Source: Bacteroidota bacterium
Lineage (GTDB): Bacteria; Bacteroidota; Bacteroidia; UBA7662; JAIXUI01
Reading direction: 5' to 3'
NCBI GenBank assembly: GCA_027484125.1
Contig: JAIXUI010000120.1
Location: 15,441-79,440 of the forward strand
Length of the DNA stretch: 64,000 bases
Shown here: one piece after another, positions 5,151 to 60,562 of the stretch
Position numbering within the stretch: the first letter of the stretch is position 1
How the letters are laid out: each line of letters opens with the position of its first letter
Notes under the pieces: model-generated
Database searches by the model: none
Told to the model about the DNA's origin: nothing
What the model saw: only the letters and a program-made list of their open reading frames with translations
Position numbers and translations under genes: made by a program

Positions 5151-5152
5151 TA

Positions 5153-5974
5153 TCAATTTTTTAAAAATCTTAAACACGCCCAATTATGGAGCGTAGAGGT
5201 GTGCAAAAGCAAAAATCCATTCTTTTCGGCGATGGATTCCAAATGTGAAATGTCTTCCGTATAAAAACCACTTAAAAGCAATACCCCCCCGGAATTGAGG
5301 TGTTTGGCGTATGCTGGAATATCTTCAGAAAGTATATTTCGGTTGATATTGGCGATAAAAATATCAAAAGTACCAAGCGAATCTAAAGTGCTAGCATCAC
5401 CTAGCATGACCTCTAATTGCGAAAAACCATTTCTATCTCGATTCTCAATAGCATTTTCATAACACCATGGATCGTTATCAATGGCGTATGCTTCATGGGC
5501 TCCCAACTTTAAAGCGTACAAAGCAAGAATTCCGGTACCGGAACCCATATCCATTACACGCTTACCAGCAACCTCGAGTTCTGATATTTGACGAATCATC
5601 AATTCGGTAGTAGCGTGATGCCCCGTACCAAACGACATTTTTGGCTCAATGATTAACTCATGCGCATAACCTTCTTCTTGAGAATGAAATCCGGCACGAA
5701 TAAGGCATAAGGGCCAAATACGAACTGGGTCATAGAATTTCTCCCACTCTGCATTCCAATTGATGTCTGGTAAAGGTTCCCAAGCCTTAATCTGCGCTCC
5801 AAAACGGGTGCAAATTTCTTCTGTAGCGGCCCTATCGAAAGTATCTACTTGCACATAGGCCAGCAATTCACCTTCCTTTTCCTCGAAGGAATCAAATCCT
5901 TCTTCCCCAAATAGTGCAACTAAAATGTCCGGATCTGACTCATTCAGCTGGATACTGACTTGTAAATAACCCAT
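5153..5974 (-). CDS. prmA: 50S ribosomal protein L11 methyltransferase
   Basis: IEPKMSFGTGHHATT, DMGSGTGILA SAM-binding motif, ANINRNIL. Confidence 0.95.
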   Translation of the reverse strand: MGYLQVSIQLNESDPDILVALFGEEGFDSFEEKEGELLAYVQVDTFDRAATEEICTRFGAQIKAWEPLPDINWNAEWEKFYDPVRIWPLCLIRAGFHSQEEGYAHELIIEPKMSFGTGHHATTELMIRQISELEVAGKRVMDMGSGTGILALYALKLGAHEAYAIDNDPWCYENAIENRDRNGFSQLEVMLGDASTLDSLGTFDIFIANINRNILSEDIPAYAKHLNSGGVLLLSGFYTEDISHLESIAEKNGFLLLHTSTLHNWACLRFLKN

Positions 5975-8239: not shown

Positions 8240-8269
8240 CAAAGATAAGAGTCAAATTACTTTTTCAAA
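8240..8269 (-). promoter_or_regulatory. Bacteroidota -33/-7 promoter for rpmE2
   Basis: TATCTTTG at 8240-8247 with TTTG at 8266-8269. Confidence 0.7.
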
Positions 8270-19199: not shown

Positions 19200-19207
19200 C
19201 AAAAATA
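19200..19207 (-). promoter_or_regulatory. -7 element (TATTTTTG) for the DUF3467-tatC unit
   Basis: TAnnTTTG 4 nt upstream of the ATG, adjoining the rpoC terminator T-tract. Confidence 0.6.
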
Positions 19208-19208
19208 G

Positions 19209-19240
19209 AAAAGAGCCGGTCTTTTGAACCGGCTCTTTTT
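19209..19240 (-). terminator. Intrinsic terminator after rpoC
   Basis: AAAAGAGCCGG...CCGGCTCTTTT inverted repeat with T-runs on both strands. Confidence 0.85.
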
Positions 19241-19258
19241 GTTTCTGTTAAACTTAGC

Positions 19259-34817: not shown

Positions 34818-35732
34818 TCACGGCTTACTCAAGTAAGGTTTAAGTTTTTCGAGCTTTAGGCTATCTAAAAACAACCATTTTTCTGGAGACATGCGCTCCG
34901 GGACGTGTTTGTTTTGTTCTCGGTACCTAATAATTTTTGAAGCGATGTATCTGCCTATGTATGGGTGTTTCCCAAGCGTTTCTCTATCAGCATTGATCCA
35001 GTCTAAAAGCTGATTGGGAGATGAAGACACTTCTAATTGGGGAGCAATTTTCATATAAACTGCTGTGTCTAATCCAAAAACTTCCAGCAGTTGCTCTCTT
35101 CTTACAAAACCGCCAAGTTTGTTCCGATACTTAACAATTCGGGAAGCTAAAACAGGTCCAATATCTGGTAGTCTTTCCCATGCAGCCGAATCTGCATGAT
35201 TAAGCGACAAAATTCTAACGTTTTTGGATGCCACAGGCATTCTTCGTGCTGTTTCATCCGGTAGGTTAGAACGGTTAAATTCAAGTGCTGGAATAGAACG
35301 AGAAAATCGAGCATTATGCTGAAGTAGTTCTTTATCAGCTTCTCTAAGACCATAAATTCGATCAAAGTCTTCTTTCCGACGGAATTGCCCTCCGCTATTC
35401 CTGTATTTAATAATACGAGTTGCAATCCAAGGTTTTACACCAAGTAAAACTAGACTATCCGCAGTAACGGTCATTGGATCAAAAGGAAAACCTTGAGCAT
35501 TAGATTTAGGCTTAGAGTAGTTTGGCTTGTACCGATAATTGGGTTGAACATTACGCTTCAACTTCAAACTATCTGCCCAAGGCTTCCAAACTTCAGAGGG
35601 AATTTCATCATTGCTTGGCCAGTTTAGGACAATGAGGTCAGTAGCAGCTAGAATGCTCAGCCATGCAAGTGCTCCTTTTAGCTCATGTGCACTAACCTGA
35701 AGTTCATTGAAAAGTTCCTTCAGTGATTTCAT
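34818..35732 (-). CDS. ComEA-like helix-hairpin-helix DNA-binding protein
   Basis: Three HhH units (LGVKPWIATRIIKYR, LPDIGPVLASRIVKYR, HPYIGRYIASKII) after an N-terminal TM segment. Confidence 0.85.
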   Translation of the reverse strand: MKSLKELFNELQVSAHELKGALAWLSILAATDLIVLNWPSNDEIPSEVWKPWADSLKLKRNVQPNYRYKPNYSKPKSNAQGFPFDPMTVTADSLVLLGVKPWIATRIIKYRNSGGQFRRKEDFDRIYGLREADKELLQHNARFSRSIPALEFNRSNLPDETARRMPVASKNVRILSLNHADSAAWERLPDIGPVLASRIVKYRNKLGGFVRREQLLEVFGLDTAVYMKIAPQLEVSSSPNQLLDWINADRETLGKHPYIGRYIASKIIRYREQNKHVPERMSPEKWLFLDSLKLEKLKPYLSKP

Positions 35733-35739
35733 GCATAAG

Positions 35740-36639
35740 CTATTTTCTAAACTGGCTCATCACCAGAGCGATGCCTTCCTCAAAAGAATGAGGCTCAAAA
35801 CCAAGCTCTCTTCTGGCTTTGTCTAAAATAAAACCTGTTCTGGGAGGACGTTTGGCTTTTTGATTTAGTGTTGAAGATGAAACTGTTTGTACTAAAGAAT
35901 CATCCAATTTGAAGTAACGGGCTACCCGGGCTACCAATTCACGAATCGACATAAAGTCTTTTCCGGAAATGTTGTAAACCCCATTCGCTTTTTGAACCGC
36001 TGCCAAATAGCAACCCATTGCTAAATCTTCCGCAAGAGTTGGAGTTCGGAATTGATCATCTACAACTTTAATGGGCTGCTGTTTTTCAAGAGCTCCCTTA
36101 GCCCATAATACAATATTGGAACGGCTCATGTCTTCTGCGATTCCATAAACCAATACTGTTCTTATAATTGAAGCTGAAATTCCGCTATCAAGCACTAGTT
36201 TTTCAGCTTCTAACTTTGATTCTCCATAGTAACTCAAAGGGGCAGCAACAGCCTCTTCGGTATATGGCCCATGCAAGCCATCAAAGATGAAGTCAGTAGA
36301 AACATGTACTAAATGCGCATTTACAGATTTGCATGCTTCAATCCAATTTGCAACTGCATCAACATTGAGATTCCAGCACAATTCTCTTTGATCTTCACAA
36401 TCATCCACTTGGGTCATGGCCGCAGTATGAATAACCGCATCAGGACGGTAAGATTCTGCTATTTTCATCACCTCATCCCTGTTGGTGATATCTACGGATT
36501 GATATTGAAATGAGCCCGCTTGGGTAACGCGATTAACACCTCTTGCGGTAGCAAGAAATTGGTGCTCCGGATATTTCTGCAGCAGATAAACAAGCTTTTG
36601 GCCCAAAAGTCCGTTGCTACCAGTTATTAATATTTTCAT
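35740..36639 (-). CDS. RmlD/RfbD-like NAD(P)-dependent oxidoreductase (extended SDR)
   Basis: ITGSNGLLG, HTAAMTQVDDCE, HVSTDFIFDG, YGESK, DQFRTPT. Confidence 0.9.
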   Translation of the reverse strand: MKILITGSNGLLGQKLVYLLQKYPEHQFLATARGVNRVTQAGSFQYQSVDITNRDEVMKIAESYRPDAVIHTAAMTQVDDCEDQRELCWNLNVDAVANWIEACKSVNAHLVHVSTDFIFDGLHGPYTEEAVAAPLSYYGESKLEAEKLVLDSGISASIIRTVLVYGIAEDMSRSNIVLWAKGALEKQQPIKVVDDQFRTPTLAEDLAMGCYLAAVQKANGVYNISGKDFMSIRELVARVARYFKLDDSLVQTVSSSTLNQKAKRPPRTGFILDKARRELGFEPHSFEEGIALVMSQFRK

Positions 36640-36650
36640 AGAAGGTTCGT

Positions 36651-36869
36651 TTATAGGTCCCAAATGGAAGGACGACGATTAAAATGTTGCCGAATTTGCA
36701 TCCAAAAAGCCAAAGTAAAGTAAAGCACAAGGGGAGAGCCCAGTGTGAGAAAAGAGGCATATATGAACACTTTTCTAAGTGAAGTAGAAGAAATCCCTAC
36801 CCTATCCGCAACTTCGGTGCAAACTCCGAAGGAGTACTTTTCCAATCGAGTGATGAGCGTGGTTTTCAT
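36651..36869 (-). CDS. PspC domain-containing small membrane protein
   Basis: FGVCTEVADRVGI...LRKVFIYASFLTLGSPLVLY is the Bacteroidota PspC pattern. Confidence 0.8.
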   Translation of the reverse strand: MKTTLITRLEKYSFGVCTEVADRVGISSTSLRKVFIYASFLTLGSPLVLYFTLAFWMQIRQHFNRRPSIWDL

Positions 36870-36923
36870 GGTTTCGAAAATGATGAATTTATCGCGTTAG
36901 TTCAACATCTACTTAAGAATTAG

Positions 36924-36982
36924 TGTACCAAATTCTGGAAAAGTCCCATAATCAGGACAAGCACTGTCCGAAAATTGGTACA
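36924..36982. promoter_or_regulatory. Three tandem 18-bp palindromic sites (TGTCC-N8-GGACA-like), putative enhancer-binding-protein UAS
   Basis: TGTAC-CAAATTCT-GGAAA (36924-41), AGTCC-CATAATCA-GGACA (36942-59), TGTCC-GAAAATTG-GTACA (36965-82). Confidence 0.6.
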
Positions 36983-37085
36983 CTTTTACATTCAAGCTAA
37001 GTTACTCAACTGAAATTCTCGGACTTCAATGTTAGGTTAGGATTGAATAAAGGGCTATCGAAACAAAATTTCCACACAACAAAAA

Positions 37086-37103
37086 TTTGGCACACTAATT
37101 GAA
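37086..37103 (+). promoter_or_regulatory. Putative sigma54 (-24/-12) promoter
   Basis: TTTGGCACACTAATTGAA: GG at 37089-90, exactly 10 nt, then GA at 37101-02 (consensus TGGCAC-N5-TTGC with the C replaced by A). Confidence 0.7.
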
Positions 37104-37113
37104 GCAAGGCAGA

Positions 37114-37171
37114 CATCTTTAATGGGGTTAATGAAGCGGGCTGGTCGAAATGATCGGCCCGCTTCTTTTTT
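37114..37171 (+). ncRNA. Putative sigma54-dependent small RNA (about 58 nt)
   Basis: The promoter predicts +1 near 37114. A 19-nt single-stranded CATCTTTAATGGGGTTAAT segment is followed by a + strand terminator; no credible ORF. Confidence 0.6.
37133..37171 (+). terminator. Intrinsic terminator, + strand polarity
   Basis: GAAGCGGGCTGGTC-GAAAT-GATCGGCCCGCTTC followed by TTTTTT; the - strand has no U-run. Confidence 0.8.
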
Positions 37172-37174
37172 GCG

Positions 37175-38287
37175 TTATTCTGTTGGCCCTACCCATTTAA
37201 TCCGGGCGCCTGGCAAACTCTTTATTAATCCTTCCAACTCAAGTTGTAGTAAAGTTGCTGCAAGTGTTGAGTTGTTTAGTTCTAAAGCACCAGCAAGGCT
37301 ATCAATAAAGTTACTCCCAGAATTGACGAGCAGTTTAATCTTGGCTTCAACCTCGTTGAGTGGCCTTGAAAATGTTATCGTCAACTGTTGATGCGAATTG
37401 CTATCCTGATCCCAATTCATGGCTTGAATCAAGTCGGTTGACTTGGTTACTAAGGCTGCTTTATTTTGCCGAATAAGCTCTAAGCATCCTTCAGAAAACG
37501 CATCGTTTATTCTTCCAGGTACAGCATAAACATCTCTGTTATATCCTAAAGCAAGTTCTGCTGTAATTAATGCACCCCCCGATTTTGAGGCCTCTACCAC
37601 TAATACTGCATCAGCCAATCCTGCGATAATCCTATTTCTTCTAGGGAAATTTTCCTTAACCAGCTTGGTAAATGGAGGAAATTCCGAGACAAGTCCGCCA
37701 TTTTCAATCATTCTCATCGCCAGTCTATGATGATCAGATGGATAAATTTTATCAAGGCCATGCGCTAAAATTCCAACGGTTGGCAACCCAACCTTTACGG
37801 CTTGGCGATGAGCAGCACTATCTATCCCATAAGCCAAACCGGAGACTATCAATACTTGCATTTTTTCCGCCAATTGCGCAATGAACTGCTCTGTGGTTCT
37901 TTGGCCATGAGCGGTGGCAGATCTTGTTCCGACAACCGCTAAAGCCCTTGGAGAATTTAAAGAACATGGACCTTTTTTAAACAATACCAAAGGCGAGTCC
38001 TCGCACTCTCGAAGTCTATTTGGGTATTCTTGAAGACTTATGCCGATGATCTGAACATCTTCCTTTTTACAAGTTTTTACAACCATTTCGGCTGCTCTTA
38101 AAGTATCAGCATGTAGCAGTTTGTTTACTTTAGAAGGGCCTAATCCGGGAATTCGAAGAAGGTTTTTAGATCCTGACTGAAAAATGGACTCGGCATCCAC
38201 AAAAGTTCTGAGTAAACCACGAGCTTGGCGTGGTCCTAACCCAGAGGTGACAGCCAAAGCAACTTCGAATATATTTTCTAAGGACAC
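37175..38287 (-). CDS. dprA: DNA-processing protein DprA
   Basis: LAVVGTR, IVSGLAYGID, NFPRRNRIIAGL, VVEASKSGGALITA, AVPGRI; GTG start. Confidence 0.95.
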   Translation of the reverse strand: MSLENIFEVALAVTSGLGPRQARGLLRTFVDAESIFQSGSKNLLRIPGLGPSKVNKLLHADTLRAAEMVVKTCKKEDVQIIGISLQEYPNRLRECEDSPLVLFKKGPCSLNSPRALAVVGTRSATAHGQRTTEQFIAQLAEKMQVLIVSGLAYGIDSAAHRQAVKVGLPTVGILAHGLDKIYPSDHHRLAMRMIENGGLVSEFPPFTKLVKENFPRRNRIIAGLADAVLVVEASKSGGALITAELALGYNRDVYAVPGRINDAFSEGCLELIRQNKAALVTKSTDLIQAMNWDQDSNSHQQLTITFSRPLNEVEAKIKLLVNSGSNFIDSLAGALELNNSTLAATLLQLELEGLIKSLPGARIKWVGPTE

Positions 38288-38323
38288 AAATAGTGGTTAT
38301 TTTCACGAAACAAGATAACGCAG

Positions 38324-40636
38324 ATGAAGCCAACCTTACAAAAACTTTCTTTAGCTATAATATTGATTTTCAACTCAATAGGGGTTTTTTCTCAGAGCAT
38401 TTCGGGTTTTATATTTAACGAAAAAACTCAGGAACCACTAGAAGGCGTGACGGTTGCAACAGGACCAGGAAAAGGAGTGACTAGTAGTGAGGGAGGAAAA
38501 TTCACCATTAAATTGAATGAAGAAGACAAGAAACTCATATTTTCTTACGTGGGCTTTGAGAAGCGAACGCTATTAATTAGCTCACTTCCTGAAAAGGAAA
38601 TTAAAATTGGTCTGAAACCTCTTCCTACCGGATTGAATCAGGTCGTTGTCTCGTCCGGAAAGTTTCAACAATCTCGCTCCGAAGTGCCCGTTTCAATGGA
38701 GGTCTTCAACGAGCAGTTTGTCCTCAATAACAACTCTCTTACTATGGATGACGCTTTAAACCGAGTATCCGGGGTGAACGTTTTAAGGGGTCAGGTGAAT
38801 ATCCGAGGTTCAAGCGGCTTTAGCTATGGAGTTGGAAGCCGAGTAATGATGCTTTACGACGATATGCCTTTCCTTACTGCTGATGCTGGAGAAATCAGGT
38901 GGGTGATGGTTCCATTAGAGAACATTGAACAGGTTGAGGTAATTAAAGGTGCCTCTTCGGCGCTGTATGGTTCCAATGCTTTAGCCGGGTTGGTACATTT
39001 TAGAACTGCGAGTCCAGGTTTAAAGCCTCGTACCACCATTACCACATTCAATACACTCTACGACAACCCTCCTTTCCCCCATAAGAGGCCTTGGGGCGAC
39101 AACTCCAACCCCATTGCACAAGGACTATCGGTAAGTCATAGCCAGCGAATTGGACGGCTTTCTTTGGTTACCTCTATGAGTTTAATCAATGACCAAGGTT
39201 ACAGAATAGGAGAAAAAAGCACCAGAGGTCGTTTTAATGCCAATTTAAAGTATCAAACCGGTATTAAAGGATTGACTTTAGGCCTCAATATGTCTGGTAT
39301 GGTGGACTCTTTACGACTCTACACATTCTGGCAGAACGACACCATGGCATGGGCTCCAGCTCCGCTTTCCGTTAATAATCAGCTACAATACCGAATCATG
39401 ATTGACCCCACTGTGACTTGGGTCCCTAACGATCATGAAAAGCACACATTTAGAAACCGATTCTTCCGCAACTACCTCAGCTTCGATGAAGATTTTGAAA
39501 TCGCCTGGGGCAATATGTACTACTCCGAGTATCAATACCAACATCGTTTTAGTTGGAAATGGGCTGAGAAAACCGTGGTAACGGCAGGGATGATCAATCA
39601 GTATAATCAAATTGGAAGTGATAAACTTTATGGTGAACGCCATGGAACTAACCAAGCTGCTTATGTTCAAGTAGATCAAACAATTGGCAGATTAAACTGG
39701 AACCTAGGAGGCAGGTATGAATGGCACAACATTGAGCAAGGCACCCGAAAATTTGATTATCCTGTATTTCGTTCGGGTATCAACTACAGAATTCTAAGAA
39801 AAACATGGCTTAGAGCCACTTATGGAGAAGGCGTACGCGTTCCTTCCATTGCAGAATTGTATGCAAAATCTATGATTGGCACCAATGCCATCCTGCCCAA
39901 TGTTGACCTTATAGCAGAACGAAGTTGGAGTTACGAAGCGGGAATACGACAAGAGTTTGCAAAAGGCAAATTCAGTGGAAACATTGAAGCCAGCTATTTT
40001 CATACAGACTACATTAATATGATTGAATACCGCCTAGGGGTGCGACTCAGCGGCCCACAAACACCTACTGAGATATCCTTCAAGCCCAACAACATTGTTA
40101 ATGCAAGAATTTACGGCGCTGAAATCACTACACAAATGGGGTATGTATTCCGGGATGGCGCTATTAACATTTCTACCGGATACACCTGGCTTATGCCTTA
40201 TGATTTAAGCCCAGACTTTAATTTTTATGCTGGCCTACCTGATACTATGAAAAATTTAGCGCAAGGACTAGTTCCGGAAGATTTGCAGCGCATTTTACCC
40301 TACCGATACAACCATTTGGTGCGGGCAGACTTTGAAATAAAGTATAAGAAAATCACTGTAGGCAGCAACATGCGTTACAACAGCTTTATGGTAAACATCG
40401 AGAATGTCTATTACCCCATTAGCGCGTCAGGATTAATCGGAAGAGGTTTACTTGACCAGCGATTAAGAGGTCTATCAGGCGACCTTGTTTGGGACTTCCG
40501 CTTTTATTTTGAGCCCAACGAGCACTGGAAAATTGGTGTAATCGCTAGAAATGCCTTTAACCGTGCTGTTATGAGCATTCCATTCAATATGGCAGAGCAG
40601 CGAAGCGTGACGGTTCAATTACAATGTCGAATTTAG
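38324..40636 (+). CDS. TonB-dependent outer-membrane receptor
   Basis: Signal peptide, N-terminal carboxypeptidase-regulatory-like domain, plug (IEQVEVIKGASSALYGSNALAG) and beta-barrel. Substrate unknown. Confidence 0.92.
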   Translation: MKPTLQKLSLAIILIFNSIGVFSQSISGFIFNEKTQEPLEGVTVATGPGKGVTSSEGGKFTIKLNEEDKKLIFSYVGFEKRTLLISSLPEKEIKIGLKPLPTGLNQVVVSSGKFQQSRSEVPVSMEVFNEQFVLNNNSLTMDDALNRVSGVNVLRGQVNIRGSSGFSYGVGSRVMMLYDDMPFLTADAGEIRWVMVPLENIEQVEVIKGASSALYGSNALAGLVHFRTASPGLKPRTTITTFNTLYDNPPFPHKRPWGDNSNPIAQGLSVSHSQRIGRLSLVTSMSLINDQGYRIGEKSTRGRFNANLKYQTGIKGLTLGLNMSGMVDSLRLYTFWQNDTMAWAPAPLSVNNQLQYRIMIDPTVTWVPNDHEKHTFRNRFFRNYLSFDEDFEIAWGNMYYSEYQYQHRFSWKWAEKTVVTAGMINQYNQIGSDKLYGERHGTNQAAYVQVDQTIGRLNWNLGGRYEWHNIEQGTRKFDYPVFRSGINYRILRKTWLRATYGEGVRVPSIAELYAKSMIGTNAILPNVDLIAERSWSYEAGIRQEFAKGKFSGNIEASYFHTDYINMIEYRLGVRLSGPQTPTEISFKPNNIVNARIYGAEITTQMGYVFRDGAINISTGYTWLMPYDLSPDFNFYAGLPDTMKNLAQGLVPEDLQRILPYRYNHLVRADFEIKYKKITVGSNMRYNSFMVNIENVYYPISASGLIGRGLLDQRLRGLSGDLVWDFRFYFEPNEHWKIGVIARNAFNRAVMSIPFNMAEQRSVTVQLQCRI

Positions 40637-45088: not shown

Positions 45089-45826
45089 TTGGAAGATTTG
45101 CTTCGGCTAATCAAATCCAGAATAAAGCGGCAGAATCCGGATTTACATGCCGCCATTAAGCGATTGACAGGCATAAGCCCTATCAACATCGCTCTATACG
45201 AACAAGCACTTACGCACAGTTCTGCCAATATACAGAGCACCCAAGGTTCAAGAATTGATAACGAAAGATTGGAGTACTTGGGAGATGCTGTACTTGACCT
45301 TATCGTTGCTGACATTTTATTCAAGAAATATCCTCTAAAAGATGAGGGTTTTCTAACCGAATTAAGAGCCCGGGTTGTAAATACCCAATTCTTAGATTCG
45401 ATAACTAGAAAAATCGGGCTAAACAATTTTCTCATCGCCGACGAAAAAAGTCGGCACATGATTATCCAAAACAGAAACGCTAACGCTGATTTATTAGAAG
45501 CGTTGATTGGCGCTATCTATTTAGATCACGGATTCAATGGCGCAAACAAGTTTATACAAAGCCTTGTAAAAGAGCACGTTGACTTTGATCATTTATTGGT
45601 AACCGAAAGTAATTTTAAGAGCAGGCTTTTGGAATGGTCACAACGAGAAGGGGCCAAAATTCAATTTGAACCAGTCACTGATGCAGATTTGACGCGTAAA
45701 CGAAGAATAGCCATTCAGTTGTTGGTCAATGGAAAAACAGTAGCAGTAGGCATAGATTCCACACGAAAAGAGGCTGAACAAAGAGCAGCTCAAAAATTTC
45801 TGGAGTCTTTGAAGCCAACAAACTGA
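45089..45826 (+). CDS. rnc: Ribonuclease III
   Basis: NERLEYLGDAVL signature, ADLLEALIGAIYLD and a C-terminal dsRBD; TTG start. Confidence 0.95.
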   Translation: MEDLLRLIKSRIKRQNPDLHAAIKRLTGISPINIALYEQALTHSSANIQSTQGSRIDNERLEYLGDAVLDLIVADILFKKYPLKDEGFLTELRARVVNTQFLDSITRKIGLNNFLIADEKSRHMIIQNRNANADLLEALIGAIYLDHGFNGANKFIQSLVKEHVDFDHLLVTESNFKSRLLEWSQREGAKIQFEPVTDADLTRKRRIAIQLLVNGKTVAVGIDSTRKEAEQRAAQKFLESLKPTN

Positions 45827-46283: not shown

Positions 46284-46335
46284 AAATTTAACCATCACCC
46301 TATTATCTTTAGAGAATCAAAATTAATTGCCCTCA

Positions 46336-48690
46336 ATGAAGCGAATTTCTCTGTTCATTATTCTATTCCTCGGGATATTAGGCGGGACACAAGCGCAAAA
46401 CAGCCCAAACAGGCAAGTAGTTTTACAAGGCTTTTGGTGGGACTATTGGAACGCCAATTATCCGAACGGATGGTCCAATTATCTTGCTGAACTTGCTCCA
46501 AGACTAAGAGCTCTTGGCATTGATGCAGTTTGGATACCCCCTACTGTAAAAAATCCGGGTACCAATAGTGTAGGCTATGTACCGTTTGACCATTATGACC
46601 TTGGAGATAAATATCAAAAGAACAACGTAAAAACCCGAATGGGCGATAAAGATGAACTTCTGAGAATGATGGCCATCATGAAAGCCAACGGACTTGATGT
46701 AATCCAGGATATCGTATTGAATCATATGAATGGGGCAGGTGCAGCGATTGGTGGTGCAGGTGGCGCAGATCCCGCAGCCATGGACGACGGGCAAACCAGC
46801 AGGTTTAAAAATTTCCGATATTCTTGTTATAGGAGACCAGTCATTAATGAGAATAATGTGGATTATTTAGCCAGAAGTGGCAGATTTCCTAAAAATTGGC
46901 AAAACTTTTACCCCAATCCCGGAAATCCCTGTTGTACCAACGACATCAATTCTCCATGGTGGGGACCTGATATCAGCTTCGAAGCTAACGCATTTGGCCA
47001 AAGCTCTAATGCCACCTACAATCCAGTGCAGGATAGTGATTATATGCGCAAAGGCATGCGTGATTGGATTATCTGGTATAAAAAGCAGCAAGGCTGGGAT
47101 GGCGTAAGGTTAGACGCCATTAAACACTTTCCTTCTTATATCGCGGAAGATTACTTATGGAATCTTCAATTCAACGCTGGATTTGCAAGTGGTGGTAATG
47201 ATTTGTTTGCCGTGGGTGAATGGGTTGGCGGAAAAGCTGAACTTGATAATTGGGCAAATAGTGTTCAGAATCGATCCGGAACTTTCGACTTCGCCTTAAG
47301 AAACGCCCTAGTGGGAATAATTAACGGAATTGGCAACTTCGATATGGGCTCTGTACCCAGTTATCAACAAGACAACCGCCAACGAACAGTTCCCTTTGTC
47401 AACAATCACGATACCTTCCGGCCACAATTAAGTACAAATGGAAACTATACAGGTTGGAACCTTGGCCAACAATTAGGTTTACACATTGAGCCCAATAATC
47501 CAAGGCTATCTGTGGTGTATGGCATTATACTCGCAGTAGATGGAGCGCCTCAAATTTTCTTTGAAGACTTGTTTGATATTGGTTACACCGGTAAACGTTA
47601 CAGCCATCAACCAAGATCAGAAACCGACCTCCCCGTTCGCTCAGACATCGCCAACTTAATCTGGTGTCATCAAAATTTAAGGTTCAAGCAAGGCCCATAC
47701 TTAGTTAGGTGGCAAGCACAAGACGCATTAGTGATTGAAAGAGGTGGACGAGCACTCATTGCGCTAAACGACAATTGGAATACCTGGCAAAATTTAAACG
47801 GCGTTCAAACCAATTTTCCTGATGGCACTCAACTGAGAGATTACTCAGGTGCCAATGGAACTGCTGTTAGGACAGTATATGGTGGTGGAAAAGTTGACAT
47901 TTCAATTCCTCCATGCGATGGCTCTGCTTTACAAGGAAGAAGAGGCTACGCGGTTTGGGCTCCGGTTGGCATAACTACTAATTACATAAGAACCAGAAAA
48001 ACCATCACTCAGGAATGGGAAATGAATGACGACCTTGGCGACAGCCATGCCTTATCATTAAGACAAGGAGGAAGACTTCCTGACAGTTCAACAGTATGTA
48101 GAACGGTAGGTAAACTCTTTGTAGCTGGCGGGCAACCCATTAGACTTGAAGTATTTACTGCTGATAGCATTAGAAAAGTAAACATAAGCCTTCTCGACGC
48201 ACAATGTGGATTTTTAGATAGCACTGAAGGAGCGGGAACCATCAACTACACCTATACTCCAGTGTTAAGTGGTTGGGTAACGGTAACAGTGAGAAATGCG
48301 GATAGCTTAACAGCAGGTCAAAGACTATTTGTAAAAGCTACATACCGTGCACCAGATAGTGCTTCAACCAATATTCCAAAACCTATTTGTAATTGTGTGC
48401 AAGGATTTATCACCAGCTCCCAAGATTTACAACAAGATGAAGTCATAAAAATTTGGCCCAATCCCGTTAAGGATCAACTCTTTATGGAGTTTGGAAAAAT
48501 AGCCCATCAAGGACTTTTACAAGTTAAAATATTAGACCTTGGTGGAAGAGTAATTAGATCAGAAAACATTGCCTATTACGGCCAGCAATCCACAAGTGTA
48601 CAGATAAGCGATCTTGCTCCAGGATTATACATTACTGAAATTTGGAATAATCAAGAAAGATTGATTACTCAAAAAATTGTGAAACAGTAA
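46336..48690 (+). CDS. GH13 alpha-amylase-family glycoside hydrolase with T9SS C-terminal domain
   Basis: Signal peptide; conserved regions DIVLNH, GVRLDAIKH, GEWV, FVNNHD; CTD IWPNPVKD...DLGGR...GLYITEI...KIVKQ. Confidence 0.9.
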   Translation: MKRISLFIILFLGILGGTQAQNSPNRQVVLQGFWWDYWNANYPNGWSNYLAELAPRLRALGIDAVWIPPTVKNPGTNSVGYVPFDHYDLGDKYQKNNVKTRMGDKDELLRMMAIMKANGLDVIQDIVLNHMNGAGAAIGGAGGADPAAMDDGQTSRFKNFRYSCYRRPVINENNVDYLARSGRFPKNWQNFYPNPGNPCCTNDINSPWWGPDISFEANAFGQSSNATYNPVQDSDYMRKGMRDWIIWYKKQQGWDGVRLDAIKHFPSYIAEDYLWNLQFNAGFASGGNDLFAVGEWVGGKAELDNWANSVQNRSGTFDFALRNALVGIINGIGNFDMGSVPSYQQDNRQRTVPFVNNHDTFRPQLSTNGNYTGWNLGQQLGLHIEPNNPRLSVVYGIILAVDGAPQIFFEDLFDIGYTGKRYSHQPRSETDLPVRSDIANLIWCHQNLRFKQGPYLVRWQAQDALVIERGGRALIALNDNWNTWQNLNGVQTNFPDGTQLRDYSGANGTAVRTVYGGGKVDISIPPCDGSALQGRRGYAVWAPVGITTNYIRTRKTITQEWEMNDDLGDSHALSLRQGGRLPDSSTVCRTVGKLFVAGGQPIRLEVFTADSIRKVNISLLDAQCGFLDSTEGAGTINYTYTPVLSGWVTVTVRNADSLTAGQRLFVKATYRAPDSASTNIPKPICNCVQGFITSSQDLQQDEVIKIWPNPVKDQLFMEFGKIAHQGLLQVKILDLGGRVIRSENIAYYGQQSTSVQISDLAPGLYITEIWNNQERLITQKIVKQ

Positions 48691-48695
48691 CGCTA

Positions 48696-50501
48696 CTAGC
48701 TTTTGAACCAACCATTAAGCGCCTTCAACCAAAAATGAAGGCGCTTTTGTGTTTCTGGCAATGCATCAGAATTCCAATTATTAGCTAAATAATTCTGAAG
48801 CTGGTTGCCCAATTCTATTGCATGATGTTTAGTCTGATTCCGTTCGTGTTCGTAATCATCCCGAATACTTGACAATTGAAAACGTTCATTTTCTAACTCT
48901 TCGTTATTAGACTTGATTAATTGACGAGTTTCATACCATTTATTATAAACCCATAATAGAATGATAGTTAATACAAAAAGTATCAACAAAATAATGTAGC
49001 GATTCAACCTTTTGTAAGTCAAAGTTTCATCATGAATATTTGAAAGTTGATTAGACAACTTAAACAATTGTGTTTCATATTGTCGAATCTGGGAAAACTT
49101 AAATCCTTCCTTAACAATCAATTGGCCTTCATTTCTCCAATGAGAATACTTCTTTCGAAACTTATACGCTAATTCGAAGTTTCCAAGACTAGACTCCAAA
49201 TCTACCCTTTGTTTGTAAACATTTGACAAATAAGGACGTTCTTCAGGAAACTCCTCTAATCTCAATAGAGCGGAATCATTATAAAAGACGGCTTGTTGAA
49301 TATCCCTTTTCTTAAAATAGTAATCTGAAATACGTACATAGGCTTTTATCTCTTCATGTAAATGATTCTGCATTTTTCGAAGATGCAAATTATCGATAGC
49401 ATGCGCAATTGCTTTATCATAATTACCAAAGAGTGCTTCAGCAGTAGATAAATCTACACTAGCGTTAGCCATAAAATTTTTATCCTGCAAATCAGTAGCA
49501 TACCGGTAAGTTAAATTGGCATAATGGATGACGGAATCTCTATTTGGGTGATTACGATTTTCCATGTGCCAACTTGCCAATCTTGTGACCGCTTCAGTAG
49601 CCCAAAAGATTAAGTTCTTTTTCAGGGCATAATCATATAATTGAAATAATCTTCTTTGCTCTTCATCACGATTAAGTGAATTAAAAGCTAATTCAGAATA
49701 AAAGAGCAGTTTTCTACAATGAATCTCAGCCCATTTTCTACTAACATCAGGAATTTGACCAAGTACTTTAAGTGATTCTGCTTGTTTGCCCTCATAAAGT
49801 AATTCATCAGCATACCTAATTTGACAGAGATAACGACGCTTGGTCCAGCCTAGGGCTTGATACGCCAAAATGGCTTTCTCATAATACAGAAAAGCTACAT
49901 CAGCTTTTCGGAAATTACACTCATAATGCCCCAATTGTTCATAAGTAATAGCATTTTCAATCAAGCGCATTGGATTATCCTTTACTAATTGCAGCAGTAT
50001 AGTCTTTTGTTTTTGATATTCAGGAACATTCCAGGATCGAGCATGAATCCGCATCCACATATAAGATTGCTGCCATTGCCAAGTAGCACCGGCATTAGAA
50101 GAATCACCTAAACTTTGAACTAAACGATAACACTCTTTCAAAGAATCAACTTCATTGGCAATAAGAAACTGATGAAACAACACCTGAAAATAAGCTGAAT
50201 CCCGTCTCGAAATACTTTTAAGCAATGAAGAATTGGTAGAATATGCCGAAAACAACCACCCACTATTCATATTTATAACAGATTCTCCTGTTATTCGTAA
50301 AATTTCCGATTCACTAAATGTATGATCTTTGAACCCAGGAATGTTTGCTTTTTGAAAGTTTAAAGTATCATAAGAAAGTAACAACATTGACTTCCTACTT
50401 AAGGAAGCAGAATTAGATTGCTGACCTTGGTTTGAGCAAGAAAGTACACTTACATACACTAAAGCAACCCAACTAATCCAATAGCATTTATTAATAGTCA
50501 T
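48696..50501 (-). CDS. TPR-repeat membrane protein (sensor-like ectodomain, one TM, short cytoplasmic coiled coil)
   Basis: Lipobox-like VLS/C22, helical TPR-like repeats, TM YIILLILFVLTIILLWVY, about 80 aa tail without kinase motifs; AT-rich. Confidence 0.65.
   Translation of the reverse strand: MTINKCYWISWVALVYVSVLSCSNQGQQSNSASLSRKSMLLLSYDTLNFQKANIPGFKDHTFSESEILRITGESVINMNSGWLFSAYSTNSSLLKSISRRDSAYFQVLFHQFLIANEVDSLKECYRLVQSLGDSSNAGATWQWQQSYMWMRIHARSWNVPEYQKQKTILLQLVKDNPMRLIENAITYEQLGHYECNFRKADVAFLYYEKAILAYQALGWTKRRYLCQIRYADELLYEGKQAESLKVLGQIPDVSRKWAEIHCRKLLFYSELAFNSLNRDEEQRRLFQLYDYALKKNLIFWATEAVTRLASWHMENRNHPNRDSVIHYANLTYRYATDLQDKNFMANASVDLSTAEALFGNYDKAIAHAIDNLHLRKMQNHLHEEIKAYVRISDYYFKKRDIQQAVFYNDSALLRLEEFPEERPYLSNVYKQRVDLESSLGNFELAYKFRKKYSHWRNEGQLIVKEGFKFSQIRQYETQLFKLSNQLSNIHDETLTYKRLNRYIILLILFVLTIILLWVYNKWYETRQLIKSNNEELENERFQLSSIRDDYEHERNQTKHHAIELGNQLQNYLANNWNSDALPETQKRLHFWLKALNGWFKS
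48717..48754 (+). terminator. Terminator of the GH13 gene, lying inside the 3' end of the opposite-strand TPR ORF
   Basis: Perfect 11-bp stem AAGCGCCTTCA/TGAAGGCGCTT followed by TTGTGTTT. Confidence 0.7.
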
Positions 50502-52777
50502 CTAAATTCAAATTTAATTCTTGCTAGATCCAAATCTTTTTCAAAATGAGTTTTAATATTCAACTCATTTATTAACTCAGCAATAACTATTTTACTCGTT
50601 CTATTCTGCAATTCAGCAGATGTTTTACTAAAAATCGATTCACTTATATCTTCATAAACAAGCAATTCTATTAAATCATGCTCATACAACAAAGACGATT
50701 CCATTGAAAACCCTTTTTCGAATAACCTGATAATTAGCTCTTTTCTATCATGACTTTTTGCCATAAATCGTCTAACTAAAATATCAATTAGAATTTTCAA
50801 TTTATGAACATCTTCATTCCAAATTAATGACTCAGGAACAAAAATATCAACCGTACAAGGATGAAATATTTTTAAAGTTTTCCAAGATGCCTCCCAATCT
50901 GACTTGAAGGAAATAGGAGCAACAGATTCTTTACTTGAATTTAAACCTTTATCGGTTGTTTTTATGTTTAAAGCTTTTTTAAGATAGTTAAGCGAATTTC
51001 TAAGATGGTAATACAAGATAACATTAAATCTTAGAACCGCTATTCCTTTTCTGTCTGAAAGCGATGACCAGCTTTCGAATAACTCGAATTCTAGTTTTTT
51101 ATATTTCAAATATTGATCTGTCATCTTTTTTAATTGTATGTAATCAGCTTCGAGTTTTATTTTCTGATTTTCAACTTCTAATAAATCGTTTTTAATCTTC
51201 TCAATTTTAGCAATATCACTTCGAATTCTTAAATAGAATATAATTATTAAAAATACTAGAATCAGAAATGCTGTACCAACAAGAAATAAAAGCTTAATTT
51301 TCGCTTCAGAAAGTTTATCCTTAGATGTCTGTAATTCAGCTTCTCTGCTTATAACATTCCTTTGGAGCTCATTAATTTTTTTTATTTTTGAATCATCAAC
51401 TAAGTTTATGCTATTTTGCAGCTCATCATATCGGTTTGCCATTATGTTTGCGCCTTTAAAATCACCGATACTGGCTAACCAGTCTGATTTTAGTTGATAC
51501 AGCGATAGCTTAGCTTGTTTATTTGGATATGCTTCAATTAGCTTTTCCTGTTCCTCAAACAACTCCTCTAGCAACTTTACACTACCTACATTCAATAGCA
51601 AACGAATTTTTTCATCGATAGTAACTATAAGCTCCGTTGTATCATTACTACCTCTTTCAAGCTTTTCTGTAATTTCTAAATAATTTAATGCCTCATTCAC
51701 TAACCCAAGAGCCGAAGACGCTTTTGAAGCCATGAAATACGCTTGATGGGTTAGCACATCATCATTAGCAGCATTCACAAGACTTATGGCATTGTGAACC
51801 AATGAATCAGCGAGCTTCCATTCTTTTGATAGCAATGCAGCTTCAGACAGACCTAAAAATGCTTTGAGTTTGTTTTTTGGGCTGTTGATTTCTGTTGCTA
51901 TTTTCAATAAAGTTTGGAAGTTTTCCTTGGCTAATGTCGTTTCACCTAATCTAAGCTGAGCCCTGGCGGCTAGTGTGTAACCATTGCATGCTGTGAGAGG
52001 ACCTGGAATCTTTAACAAGATGTCATTCGCTTTTTCAACGAAATAGCGTACGGAATCTAGTTGGTCATTGATAAGACAAACATCTGCCAATTCAACTAGT
52101 AATTTTGCTTGAAAGCCACCCCATCCAATTCTCTCAGCTATTTTCAACGCCTCTCTGTAGTAAAAGGAAGACCATTCAAAATGTCCCTGGTTGTAGGCGA
52201 TATCACCGGATTTAGTTAAGAATTTCAACAATAAATCCTGGCTTAAACCAGTATTTTTTAAACTATCGATGACCTTATTAAGGGATTGAGGGGCATGATG
52301 AATAGCATCAGTTCTAAACCTCAGATAAGCGCGTTCTATTTCCAGATTTGTAGGTAGTGAGTGGTCAGCCCTGTCTATCAAGCGTTTAGCCGAATCAAAT
52401 TGGTCAAGGCTAATTAGAAAGTCAGCTTTCCTGAGTTGTATAGCAGCAACTAACGAATCATCCGTGGCTTTCGAAAAGGCAAGAGCCAATAAACTGTCTA
52501 TATCTTGTTGTGATTCCTTCCAATAGATTAATTTTTCTGAGGCTTGTAGTAACAACATGGTAGCTTCCGCTTCCATTTCTTTGTTTACCAGTGCGCGATT
52601 TTCAATTTTATGGTACCAGAATTTGAAATCTTGGTATTGCAGCGCATTTAATCCCACCATGGCATTGAGCGCTTCTTCTTTCAAGGTCAATTTGGATTGG
52701 CCAAACCGGCAACTTACCACTACTGTAAGTGCTACTGACAGTAGTAAAAATTGAACTAAAAACCACACCCGCCTCAT
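50498..52777 (-). CDS. TPR-repeat membrane protein with degenerate histidine-kinase-like C-terminus
   Basis: Lipobox-like VVS/C23, TPR-like repeats, TM LLFLVGTAFLILVFLIIIFY, coiled coil and YHLRNSL (H-box-like); no intact N or G boxes. Confidence 0.65.
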   Translation of the reverse strand: MRRVWFLVQFLLLSVALTVVVSCRFGQSKLTLKEEALNAMVGLNALQYQDFKFWYHKIENRALVNKEMEAEATMLLLQASEKLIYWKESQQDIDSLLALAFSKATDDSLVAAIQLRKADFLISLDQFDSAKRLIDRADHSLPTNLEIERAYLRFRTDAIHHAPQSLNKVIDSLKNTGLSQDLLLKFLTKSGDIAYNQGHFEWSSFYYREALKIAERIGWGGFQAKLLVELADVCLINDQLDSVRYFVEKANDILLKIPGPLTACNGYTLAARAQLRLGETTLAKENFQTLLKIATEINSPKNKLKAFLGLSEAALLSKEWKLADSLVHNAISLVNAANDDVLTHQAYFMASKASSALGLVNEALNYLEITEKLERGSNDTTELIVTIDEKIRLLLNVGSVKLLEELFEEQEKLIEAYPNKQAKLSLYQLKSDWLASIGDFKGANIMANRYDELQNSINLVDDSKIKKINELQRNVISREAELQTSKDKLSEAKIKLLFLVGTAFLILVFLIIIFYLRIRSDIAKIEKIKNDLLEVENQKIKLEADYIQLKKMTDQYLKYKKLEFELFESWSSLSDRKGIAVLRFNVILYYHLRNSLNYLKKALNIKTTDKGLNSSKESVAPISFKSDWEASWKTLKIFHPCTVDIFVPESLIWNEDVHKLKILIDILVRRFMAKSHDRKELIIRLFEKGFSMESSLLYEHDLIELLVYEDISESIFSKTSAELQNRTSKIVIAELINELNIKTHFEKDLDLARIKFEFR

Positions 52778-53650: not shown

Positions 53651-53853
53651 CAGAGCACGAATTCAGTAACCTTGCTATACGGAAGTTGATCGATGAAAGC
53701 TTTGGCAGCCTCCACCCTGTCGCCAAATCCACATTCCTGCAGCCCTTTTTCAGGACGATCGGCACGAAAGTAGGCGACTAATGTAAAATTACTGTCACGA
53801 ACTTGGACGTAATCGGGGATTTTAGCCTTCCCTTTGATTTTGAGGATATACAA
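53650..53853 (-). CDS. Small conserved Bacteroidota protein (67 aa)
   Basis: YILKIKGKAKIPDYVQVRD..FTLVAYFRADRP, a recalled conserved family; TTG start; the stop overlaps the ftsE ATG. Confidence 0.7.
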   Translation of the reverse strand: MYILKIKGKAKIPDYVQVRDSNFTLVAYFRADRPEKGLQECGFGDRVEAAKAFIDQLPYSKVTEFVL

Positions 53854-53895
53854 GTTGATATGTCGTTTAACTTAGCGCCAAATTACAAACCCTCC

Positions 53896-55593
53896 ATGAC
53901 ATCAAAAGCACTTTATCTTCCAATTCTCAGCATTGCTTTTACTGCATGTGGATCATCAGCACTTTTAAAGAACCCTGATGCGTTTGCCGTAAAGTGTGAG
54001 CCTAAGATTTTAGAAAGAAAAGGCGACAGTGTTTCTTTTGAATTAAGCGCCACCATTCCCCCTAAAATTTTCGACAAAAAAGCTCAAGTGGTGGTGAAGC
54101 CCTATTTGGCAGTAGGTCAAAAACAGATTGCTTTGCCAGAGTTACTTCTTAAAGGCGAAAAAGTTGAAGGTGAAGTACAAACGGTCAATTTTGAAAAGGG
54201 CGGAAAGGTAAAGTATAACGGCACTTTCGCCTATCAAGATGGCATGGAACAGTCTGAATTGATGGCTGAACCAACACTTGTATGGAAAAAGAAAAAACAT
54301 TCCTTGAAAGCCAGAAAGTTAGCTCCAGGGGTAATTGTAAGCAGCGATTTAGCTGAAAACATGCGCCCATGGAAAGCGCTACCTATTGTACCAATTGATT
54401 CTCTCACAGAACATAAAGCCACCATCTTCTTCCTTAAAGACCAAGCGGAGTTTAGAAGTACAGAGAAAAAGCGCAAAGAAGTTGATGCGTTGGTAAAGAT
54501 GCTGAAAGGCCAAGTGGACATCAGAGATGTGCAACTTCGTGCTTTTGCATCACCTGATGGAGAGCTAGATCGCAACAGTAACCTCGCCGATGAGCGCGCT
54601 GAAAATGTGAATCAGTTTGTTTATGAAATCCTCAAAAAGAAAAAAGTAAACAAGGTTGACGAAGATGGCTTCATCAAAGATGTGAAAACCGCTGAAGACT
54701 GGGTTGGATTTTCCCAATTGGTGTCCCAAAACAATTGGAAAGGGAAGTCCATGACCGAAGCTATTTTAGCGACCACAGTTGATGAAAACGAAAAAGAGAA
54801 ATTGCTTAGGGAGAATAAAGAGAATTTCCAATTTCTGGCAGATCAAATTTTACCAAAATTACGACGCACAGAAGTGGTAATCCGAACTTCTCCACTTGAG
54901 AAAAGTTTGGGAGAACTAGTAGAGCAAGCAGTGAAAGACCCTTCAAAAATGACGGAGTCGGAATTGATAAAGGCTTATAACTTCACACAAAACGCCCCTT
55001 TAAAATCAGGCATTGCTGCCTATTTGGGTATGCGCTACCCGAATAACGCTCCATATTTGCACAACTCCGGAGTTGCGTTTATGCAGCTTAGTCCACCTAA
55101 TACCAACATGGCGATAAATGCTTTTTCAAGAGCGGCAGCAATGGAAGGCTCTGACCCACTTTCATTAGAACATTGGGGGATGGCCTTGCTGGAATCCGGA
55201 AAAACAGAAGAAGGATTAAAGAAACTGATTGCTGCTAACCAGAAAAACGGAACACTCGGAGCCGCAGCCATTGCGCCACTGTTACAGCTTGGCAGGTATG
55301 AAGAAGCACTTACGATTGCAAGCGCTACTAAGTGCACCTTTAACAAAGCTTTGGCAGAAATTTTAAATATGAAGCTGAATGATGCGGCTGAAACCATCCA
55401 GTGTGGCGAAAAAACGGCGCCTTTCTTCTACCTCCGTGCTATCATGGCAGCGAGAAAAGGCGATACAGAATTGTTAGGAACCAGCTTGGTACGTGCTATT
55501 AGCCAAGATAGCCGCTGGAGAGAAAAAGCTCGTTCTGATGCTGAATTCAGCCTTTACCGCGATCAAGAGTTTTTCAAGGTAGCCACCCGATGA
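53896..55593 (+). CDS. Lipoprotein with OmpA-like peptidoglycan-binding domain and C-terminal TPRs
   Basis: Start reassigned to 53896 (MTSKALYLPILSIAFTA/C). FASPDG...N..LADERA OmpA_C-like motif; TPR tail ending FYLRAIMAARKG...KARSDAEF. Confidence 0.75.
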   Translation: MTSKALYLPILSIAFTACGSSALLKNPDAFAVKCEPKILERKGDSVSFELSATIPPKIFDKKAQVVVKPYLAVGQKQIALPELLLKGEKVEGEVQTVNFEKGGKVKYNGTFAYQDGMEQSELMAEPTLVWKKKKHSLKARKLAPGVIVSSDLAENMRPWKALPIVPIDSLTEHKATIFFLKDQAEFRSTEKKRKEVDALVKMLKGQVDIRDVQLRAFASPDGELDRNSNLADERAENVNQFVYEILKKKKVNKVDEDGFIKDVKTAEDWVGFSQLVSQNNWKGKSMTEAILATTVDENEKEKLLRENKENFQFLADQILPKLRRTEVVIRTSPLEKSLGELVEQAVKDPSKMTESELIKAYNFTQNAPLKSGIAAYLGMRYPNNAPYLHNSGVAFMQLSPPNTNMAINAFSRAAAMEGSDPLSLEHWGMALLESGKTEEGLKKLIAANQKNGTLGAAAIAPLLQLGRYEEALTIASATKCTFNKALAEILNMKLNDAAETIQCGEKTAPFFYLRAIMAARKGDTELLGTSLVRAISQDSRWREKARSDAEFSLYRDQEFFKVATR

Positions 55594-60489: not shown

Positions 60490-60562
60490 AACTTCAAAAG
60501 TTGTGTCAAATATCGCCGATAATCCGGCAGCATGTACGTAATAAGGAAGGATGTTGCTCGGA

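Follow-up and report, generated by a model that had tools for sequence, protein, structure and literature searches.

We analysed a 64-kb stretch of DNA from a Bacteroidota bacterium (the whole of which is called the window below) around the interval that separates a gene for a small PspC-domain protein from dprA. A sequence-only reading of this DNA had described, between these two genes, a promoter, an unpaired stretch, a 14-bp hairpin and a T6 tail on the + strand, with both flanking genes on the - strand. Each of these features was recovered where that reading had placed it, including the promoter motif TTGGCAC-N5-TTGA and the orientation of the PspC-domain ORF and of dprA (Table 1). The RpoB protein of the host is at most 79% identical to those of Sphingobacteriaceae and 76-77% identical to those of freshwater Bacteroidia MAGs. 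Elsewhere in the window, a Pfam search with an E-value threshold of 1e-5 yielded no match for the large ORFs at 771-5183, 48696-50501, 50498-52777 and 53803-55593 (1470, 601, 759 and 596 aa, respectively), and the large proteins encoded at 8257-13839 and 46327-48690 bear type IX secretion C-terminal sorting domains.

Table 1. Features of the interval between the pspC-like gene and dprA, with positions in the window and the number of alignment columns that are invariant in the five lineages compared.
Feature	Position	Strand	Sequence	Invariant columns	Remarks
PspC-domain ORF	36651-36869	-			72 aa; PF04024, 25.7 bits (Pfam cutoff 25)
Second, weaker dyad	36924-36941		TGTACCAAATTCTGGAAA		41 bp upstream of the first dyad; 3' half degenerate in the window
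Inner palindrome	36955-36969		GGACA-N5-TGTCC		right half shared with the first dyad
First dyad, TGT-N12-ACA	36965-36982		TGTCCGAAAATTGGTACA		at the aligned position in 5/5 lineages
Spacer	36985-37065			6/84 (7%)
Block just upstream (~10 bp) of the -24 element	37069-37076	+	TTTCCACA		in 4/5 lineages
Surrounding promoter sequence	37086-37103	+	TTTGGCACACTAATTGAA		GG 37089-90, ten bases, GA 37101-02
-24/-12 block	37086-37101			9/16	invariant columns are exactly TTGGCA and TTG
Sigma-54-type promoter	37087-37102	+	TTGGCAC-ACTAA-TTGA		conserved in five lineages; matches mapped Flavobacterium sites
-24 element	37089-90	+	GG
-12 element	37099-37102	+	TTGA
Stretch of 11 nt between TTG and the conserved RNA block	37102-37112	+		0/11	unconserved, indel-free
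RNA 5' part	37113-37132	+	ACAUCUUUAAUGGGGUUAAU (= ACATCTTTAATGGGGTTAAT)		~20 nt, mostly single-stranded; proposed seed
RNA 5' part, as scored for conservation	37113-37141			28/29
Terminator hairpin	37133-37165	+	GAAGCGGGCTGGTC-GAAAT-GATCGGCCCGCTTC		14 bp, 5-nt loop
3' arm and T-run	37157-37171			14/15
U-run of the intrinsic terminator	37166-37171	+	T6		T5 to T7 across all lineages
dprA	37175-38287	-			PF02481 and PF17782

The predicted RNA and its conservation

Taken as 59 nt, the predicted RNA has a folding energy of -27.9 kcal/mol (z = -6.0 relative to shuffles), compared with only -19.4 kcal/mol for its reverse complement. We scanned positions 35500-38800 for terminators and found this hairpin to be by far the strongest, with 15 pairs counted by the scan, 9 of them G-C; as an intrinsic terminator it consists of 14 bp with 9 G-C pairs followed by the T6 run, an arrangement that is conserved in all lineages. 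The same hairpin-plus-T design is found at the rpoC terminator in the window (AAAAAGAGCCGGTTCAAAAGACCGGCTCTTTTCTATTTTT, 19202-19257 on the - strand), which shows that classical hairpin-plus-U terminators are in use in this organism. For the 5' part of the RNA (37113-37132), the sole predicted structure is a marginal 5-bp helix containing three G.U pairs, and the word UUAAUG is present twice in this part.

To define a comparison set, we retained five syntenic lineages, namely the window, L001, L002, L004 and L097. Four relatives were identified by their DprA proteins (68-78% identity, the next drop being to 47%), and the relatives' contigs are arranged alike, with a TonB-dependent receptor gene followed by dprA, the intergenic region, the pspC-like gene and an RmlD-like gene. 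The fifth lineage was found via the RmlD-like protein and consists of two contigs (L097 and L003) from one sample (SRR23086376). The end of L003 and the start of L097, which belong to one genome, both break inside the terminator hairpin; the inverted repeat broke this assembly, and short-read assemblies may systematically lose this RNA.

Conservation in the five lineages is strongly partitioned (Table 1). All five bases that separate TTGGCA(Y) from TTG are variable and free of indels, and the distances GG-N10-G and TTG-N11-conserved RNA are identical in the five lineages despite the differing letters. Within the RNA 5' block, position 37114 is the sole variable one. Judged from the alignment, this is the pattern of a two-block promoter footprint held at a fixed distance from a sequence-constrained transcribed RNA. 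Upstream of the promoter, L004 has TTTCATCA where the other four lineages carry TTTCCACA.

In the stem of the hairpin, 11 pairs are unvarying and the remaining three vary without loss of pairing (UG/UA; GC/AU/GU; GC/GU), with 100% of the hairpin pairs retained in the four full-length lineages. With these four full-length sequences, covariation is statistically weak (one double change, with shuffles equalling the observed value in 265/500 cases). The G.U pairs of the stem are possible on the + strand only, where the - strand would have A.C mismatches, and together with the conserved T-run they fix the strand of the gene as +. The layout of promoter, seed and hairpin proposed by the sequence-only reading is thus conserved in relatives whose DprA proteins have diverged, and its claim of a self-contained + strand small RNA (sRNA) gene overlooked by ORF-based annotation is borne out by the five-lineage comparison, in which the promoter, the single-stranded 5' part and the terminator are all seen. 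We infer that this gene is transcribed, and we regard a real, conserved + strand sRNA gene with a predicted product of 57-59 nt (from ~37113/37115 to 37171) as very probable.

We then searched for known families and further copies. At the gathering threshold, Rfam detected only five tRNAs in the whole window, and relaxing the search of positions 36600-37400 to E-values of up to 10 yielded only chance matches (E >= 0.09, far below cutoffs). A covariance-model scan, which had been proposed alongside the sequence-only reading together with the Rfam comparison, did recover the syntenic copies, but its other matches were generic terminators (e.g., the rpoC terminator at 19202-19257) and no Rfam family emerged; applied to the distant relatives L011, L012, L099 and L100, the same model (R1) did not find the RNA. 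A scan of GTDB representatives with the 20-mer seed returned one MAG of the clade and four other matches that were coding or unrelated and had no hairpin, an initial search of GTDB representatives for the DprA locus returned no relatives, and two exact-word seed scans of JGI metagenomes gave zero matches and one chance coding match, respectively. The RNA family is therefore known so far from one narrow uncultured clade of five lineages.

Distant relatives carry DUF2851, pspC-like and RmlD-like genes without the RNA. In these genomes, a small PspC-domain gene and an RmlD-like gene are adjacent behind the DUF2851 gene (L099, 4766-5909; L100, Owenweeksia hongkongensis, 3547-5897), which suggests that PspC-domain and RmlD-like proteins form a functional pair older than the sRNA. 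Two PspC-domain ORFs flank a TrkA-type channel gene in Owenweeksia. The annotation of the pspC-like gene is uneven: it was left uncalled by the gene caller in L002 and L013, and a 69-aa ORF antisense to it was called in place of the conserved 72-aa gene in L004 (6310-6519) and L005 (3884-4093). A search with the PspC-like protein gave one match and added nothing.

Two other readings of the RNA block were discarded. A small protein gene was rejected since the sole open frame (ATG at 37122) crosses the hairpin, is frame-shifted in L002 by a 2-nt insertion in the loop, and ends differently in each lineage with no conserved stop. A repeat or uptake sequence, an idea raised by the neighbouring dprA and HHH_3 genes, was rejected since the seed and stem words are single-copy in the window.

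Promoter type and upstream dyads

Sigma-54 has been reported in Bacteroidota, for instance in F. psychrophilum and Dokdonia, and its regulons there mainly concern chaperones and envelope functions. The spacing of the conserved bases at the present locus is that of a sigma-54 promoter, with GG, ten bases and a G at 37101 in the window and the same arrangement in all five lineages. The base following TTG is A, A, T, T and T in the five lineages and never the C of the canonical -12 element (TTGC). The sequence-only reading had noted GG-N10-GA spacing here and GC as the established -12 element; we do not regard the GA as a defect because mapped Bacteroidota sigma-54 promoters read TTGA and the pspA promoter TTGT. 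As a reference set, we used ten TSS-mapped sigma-54 (SM4) promoters of Flavobacterium psychrophilum (PMC9723704), which generally read TTGGCAY-N5-TTGN and belong to skp (TTGGCACGATAGTTGA), clpB (TTGGAATAACAATTGA), lon (ATGGCACAATCCTTGA), groES (TTGGCATAATTTCTGA), a muramidase gene (TTGGCATAGCTTTTGT), Rfp36 (TTGGCATTACTTTTGC, also given as TTGGCATTACTTTTGCA), an AsmA-family gene (TAGGCAAGATATTTGC), remF (TTGGCACGATTTTAGT), THC0290_0297 (TTGGTATAATTTTAGC) and TSS 710561 (listed gene THC0290_0582; TTGGTACGAAATTTGG). TTGA is the commonest -12 form among these ten (4 promoters), followed by TTGC (2, plus one TAGC) and TTGT (1), and E. coli pspA, whose sigma-54 promoter has been validated (TTGGCACGCAAATTGT), likewise has TTGT. 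By its sequence, TTGGCACACTAATTGA of the window reads as a typical member of the mapped F. psychrophilum set, resembling for example the skp promoter. Scans based on the canonical TTGC miss promoters with the Bacteroidota -12 forms TTGA and TTGT.

We assessed how often such a site would be expected by chance. The pattern TGGCAY-N5-TTG occurs once in the window against 1.48 expected occurrences. Using a PWM built from the mapped F. psychrophilum sigma-54 promoters, the site scored 14.5 bits and ranked second in the window, with 0.7 equal or better sites expected in shuffles; using a canonical sigma-54 PWM, it ranked seventh, below matches in coding regions, and this ranking is uninformative. 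By itself, the promoter motif does not rise above chance in the window; it does so only via its conservation in relatives. Direct support exists for the features of the sequence, for the selective way in which they are conserved, for their strand and for their agreement with mapped Bacteroidota sigma-54 promoters, and we consider it probable that the promoter is indeed of the sigma-54 type. To place the transcription start, we used the mapped set, in which TTGGCA begins at -28 +/-1 in 9/10 promoters (the motif of Rfp36 being 7 nt further upstream). Applied to the window, this spacing predicts a start at 37115 +/-1, and invariance begins at 37113-37115. In the six frames of the 64-kb window, we found none of the RpoN box, GAFTGA, ESELFGH or Walker A motifs, so that neither rpoN nor an activator gene was detected within these 64 kb.

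Other sigma-54-like sites were also noted. The top match of the Flavobacterium PWM in the window is TTGACACAACTTTTGA (60494-60509 on the - strand, 16.2 bits), where the AsmA-family gene at 57775-60489 has its called start; an AsmA-family gene is sigma-54-dependent in F. psychrophilum, and the -24 element of TTGACACAACTTTTGA is GA, not GG, with a predicted start inside the called ORF. In L002, an extra lineage-specific TTGGCACGCAGTTAGCC lies ~100 bp upstream of the sRNA promoter (position 128 of the intergenic region), within the unconserved spacer, and could be a chance match or an additional sigma-54-like site. A - strand sigma-54 promoter for the pspC-like gene (TTTGGTACACTAATTCT in the window) was rejected, the GG being missing in L004 and L097.

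A second conserved block is located at 36921-36984 (26/64 columns invariant) and is separated from the promoter by an unconserved spacer of nearly constant length. It contains the first TGT-N12-ACA dyad, which starts 122-123 bp upstream of TTGGCA (131 bp in L002); none of 2000 shuffle sets (0/2000) had this pattern in all five intergenic regions. At the second dyad, the exact TGT-N12-ACA pattern is present in L001, L004 and L097 and degenerate in the window and L002, and the offset from dyad to dyad corresponds to about four helical turns; taken together, the dyads start 122-164 bp upstream of TTGGCA. The inner palindrome is kept as rGACA-N5-TGTCy in 5/5 lineages with varying spacer letters. 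We also considered the long inverted repeat of the window (18 nt, 36922-36939 with 36967-36984) as an RNA hairpin spanning 36922-36984, which is lost in the other lineages, and preferred the short dyads.

Relative to the predicted start, the dyads lie ~150 and ~190 bp upstream. GlrR sites precede the sigma-54 sRNA genes glmY and glmZ and have the consensus TGTCN10GACA (PMC3045617). By analogy, the position and form of the dyads would be those of activator sites at sigma-54 promoters, and we tentatively propose that an enhancer-binding activator binds them, a possibility that we rate at somewhat less than even. Relative to the start codon of the pspC-like gene, the dyad block is 55-115 bp upstream, with -7-box-like words there on the - strand, and the second dyad overlaps the probable sigma-A promoter region of that gene (- strand), such that the block may serve the pspC-like gene instead, or both genes. 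Closer to the pspC-like gene, TAAAATGATGAATTT (36880-36895, 10-25 nt upstream of its start) is well conserved (+ strand); it reads AAATTCATCATTTTA on the mRNA strand and may be a translation-initiation or promoter element of this gene.

Alternative explanations of the locus

The same sRNA could be produced from an ordinary Bacteroidota sigma-A promoter, with a start near 37096 and an RNA of ~76 nt, or from overlapping sigma-A and sigma-54 promoters as at E. coli glmY, where overlapping sigma-70/sigma-54 promoters have been documented (PMC3045617). Sigma-A promoters represent about 90% of mapped starts in flavobacteria, and a sigma-A -7 box (nAnnTTTG, AAAATTTG at 37082-37089) overlaps the -24 element, with counterparts in L002 (a perfect TAAGTTTG) and L004. 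Across the five lineages, however, the position of this box (TAnnTTTG) reads AAAATTTG, AATAATTG, TAAGTTTG, CAACTTTG and AAAAATTG, with the TTTG core in 3/5 (ATTG in the other 2/5) and TA in 1/5. A -33 TTTG is missing at the appropriate distance, 17 unconserved bases would stand at the start of the RNA, and neither the invariant GGCA nor the TTG with its fixed spacing would be explained, so that we consider a contribution of sigma-A at this site unlikely. A different explanation would make the conserved block no gene of its own but the 3' end signal of dprA joined to the control DNA or 5' leader of the - strand pspC-like gene. The hairpin does begin 9 nt past the dprA stop codon, dprA has no other terminator, and the pspC-like gene lies downstream of dprA on the same strand and is >90% conserved. 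As the sequence-only reading had observed, however, the hairpin has no U-run in that direction: on the - strand it is followed by CAUUAACCCC, and the T-run that all lineages conserve belongs to the + strand. With A.C mismatches in place of the G.U pairs, the - strand fold is 8.5 kcal/mol weaker, and we accordingly rejected a - strand terminator. Moreover, ~80 unconserved bases part the RNA block from the conserved block next to pspC, and a dprA end or pspC leader offers no reason for the TTGGCA-N6-TTG-N11 spacing. We hold this explanation to be highly improbable.

It is also conceivable that a real RNA is made here and works in cis or on a protein, either as an antisense RNA to read-through from dprA into pspC or as a decoy for a UUAAUG-binding protein. 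Any - strand read-through transcript would be perfectly complementary to the RNA, RNase III is encoded in the window (45089-45826), and the two copies of UUAAUG in the 5' part would suit a protein decoy. Target prediction within the 64-kb window gave no trans target above background: the best duplex reached -15.6 kcal/mol and 72% of shuffled seeds did at least as well, and no complementarity to the seed was found close to a start codon. This negative result is weak, however, given that the search covered only 64 kb of the genome. A purely cis-antisense role is disfavoured because it needs no strict conservation of sequence, yet 28/29 positions are invariant against a background of 7%. Overall, an RNA confined to a cis-acting or protein-acting role appears improbable to us, and pairing of the 5' part with mRNAs in trans is as plausible as not.

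Proposed role and relation to known small RNAs

We infer the following course of events for an sRNA driven by sigma-54. An NtrC-type enhancer-binding activator, encoded elsewhere in the genome, would bind the TGT-N12-ACA dyads, and sigma-54 RNA polymerase would bind TTGGCAC-N5-TTGA (37087-37102) and be switched on by this activator. The resulting RNA of 57-59 nt would start at ~37115 and stop at the 14-bp hairpin and U6. Its invariant and largely unpaired first 20 nt would most likely serve as a 5' seed that pairs with mRNAs encoded elsewhere, and the RNA would probably constitute a non-coding arm of a chaperone/envelope-stress response. We propose a stress-response role because the mapped flavobacterial sigma-54 regulon is dominated by chaperone and envelope-stress genes; in F. 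psychrophilum it comprises GroES/EL, DnaK, ClpB, Lon, Skp and AsmA. By analogy with this regulon, and considering the neighbouring PspC-domain gene, our best guess is a role in envelope or proteotoxic stress. Taken as a whole, the model of a sigma-54 promoter, an activator at the dyads and a trans-acting stress sRNA seems moderately likely to us.

The closest parallels to this arrangement are GlmY and GlmZ of Enterobacteriaceae, with which the present locus shares a stand-alone sRNA gene, a sigma-54 -24/-12 promoter, TGT(C)-N10/12-(G)ACA dyads 100-200 bp upstream and a possible overlap with a promoter for the housekeeping sigma factor. The present RNA has no similarity to them in sequence or structure, however, and is much shorter (58 nt versus about 150-200 nt). 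GlmY is a protein decoy and GlmZ pairs with the glmS mRNA, whereas nothing ties the present RNA to glmS. GlmY and GlmZ, with their GlrR sites and IHF, also belong to another phylum, and the GlrK/GlrR pair is not nearby here. Within Bacteroidota, Rfp1, Rfp36 and Rfp45 of F. psychrophilum are putative sigma-54-driven non-coding transcripts, alike in phylum, promoter type and lack of coding capacity. Rfp36 is 202 nt long, Rfp1 and Rfp45 are antisense to coding genes, and none is similar in sequence to the present RNA; their 5' ends have been mapped experimentally, whereas the start of the present RNA is a predicted one.

Other sRNAs are comparable in design or in regulation. RybB and MicA are short, Hfq-dependent sRNAs of the sigma-E envelope-stress response with a conserved 5'-terminal seed and a terminator hairpin. 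They resemble the present RNA in its proposed 5' seed, its terminator hairpin and its predicted dependence on an alternative stress sigma factor, and provide a functional analogy for a repressing arm, but differ from it in the sigma factor itself, in their dependence on Hfq and in the absence of homology. To our knowledge, Bacteroidota have no classical Hfq. Qrr1-5 of Vibrio and CrcZ/NrsZ of Pseudomonas are sRNAs that need sigma-54 and an activator of the response-regulator type. They are thus sigma-54-dependent like the present RNA is predicted to be, but are unrelated in sequence, of other sizes and multi-hairpin, and their targets and partners have no counterpart here. The sequence-only reading had named the locus the best candidate in the window for an undescribed regulatory system. 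This holds for the RNA itself, which has no Rfam match, shares no sequence or structure with the sigma-54-dependent sRNAs above and represents an undescribed sRNA family, but not for the kind of regulation, since sigma-54-dependent sRNAs are already known and putative ones have been listed in a flavobacterium.

A more specific version of the model, which we regard as somewhat unlikely, would make this RNA the repressing non-coding arm of the Bacteroidota sigma-54 chaperone/envelope-stress regulon, with a response-regulator-type activator acting at TGT-N12-ACA and the 5' end of the RNA silencing mRNAs of envelope or secreted proteins. If true, a phylum that lacks Hfq would have in this RNA its own functional equivalent of RybB and MicA, the sigma-E sRNAs, located beside a PspC-domain gene for membrane stress and possibly sharing control DNA with it. 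Little is known about regulatory RNAs in Bacteroidota, and hardly any has been assigned to a particular sigma factor or activator. In the present case, the promoter, likely activator sites, start, seed and terminator can all be read from the sequence of a gene whose RNA is only ~58 nt long, which makes it a compact way into the study of RNA regulation that depends on sigma-54 and enhancers in Bacteroidota.
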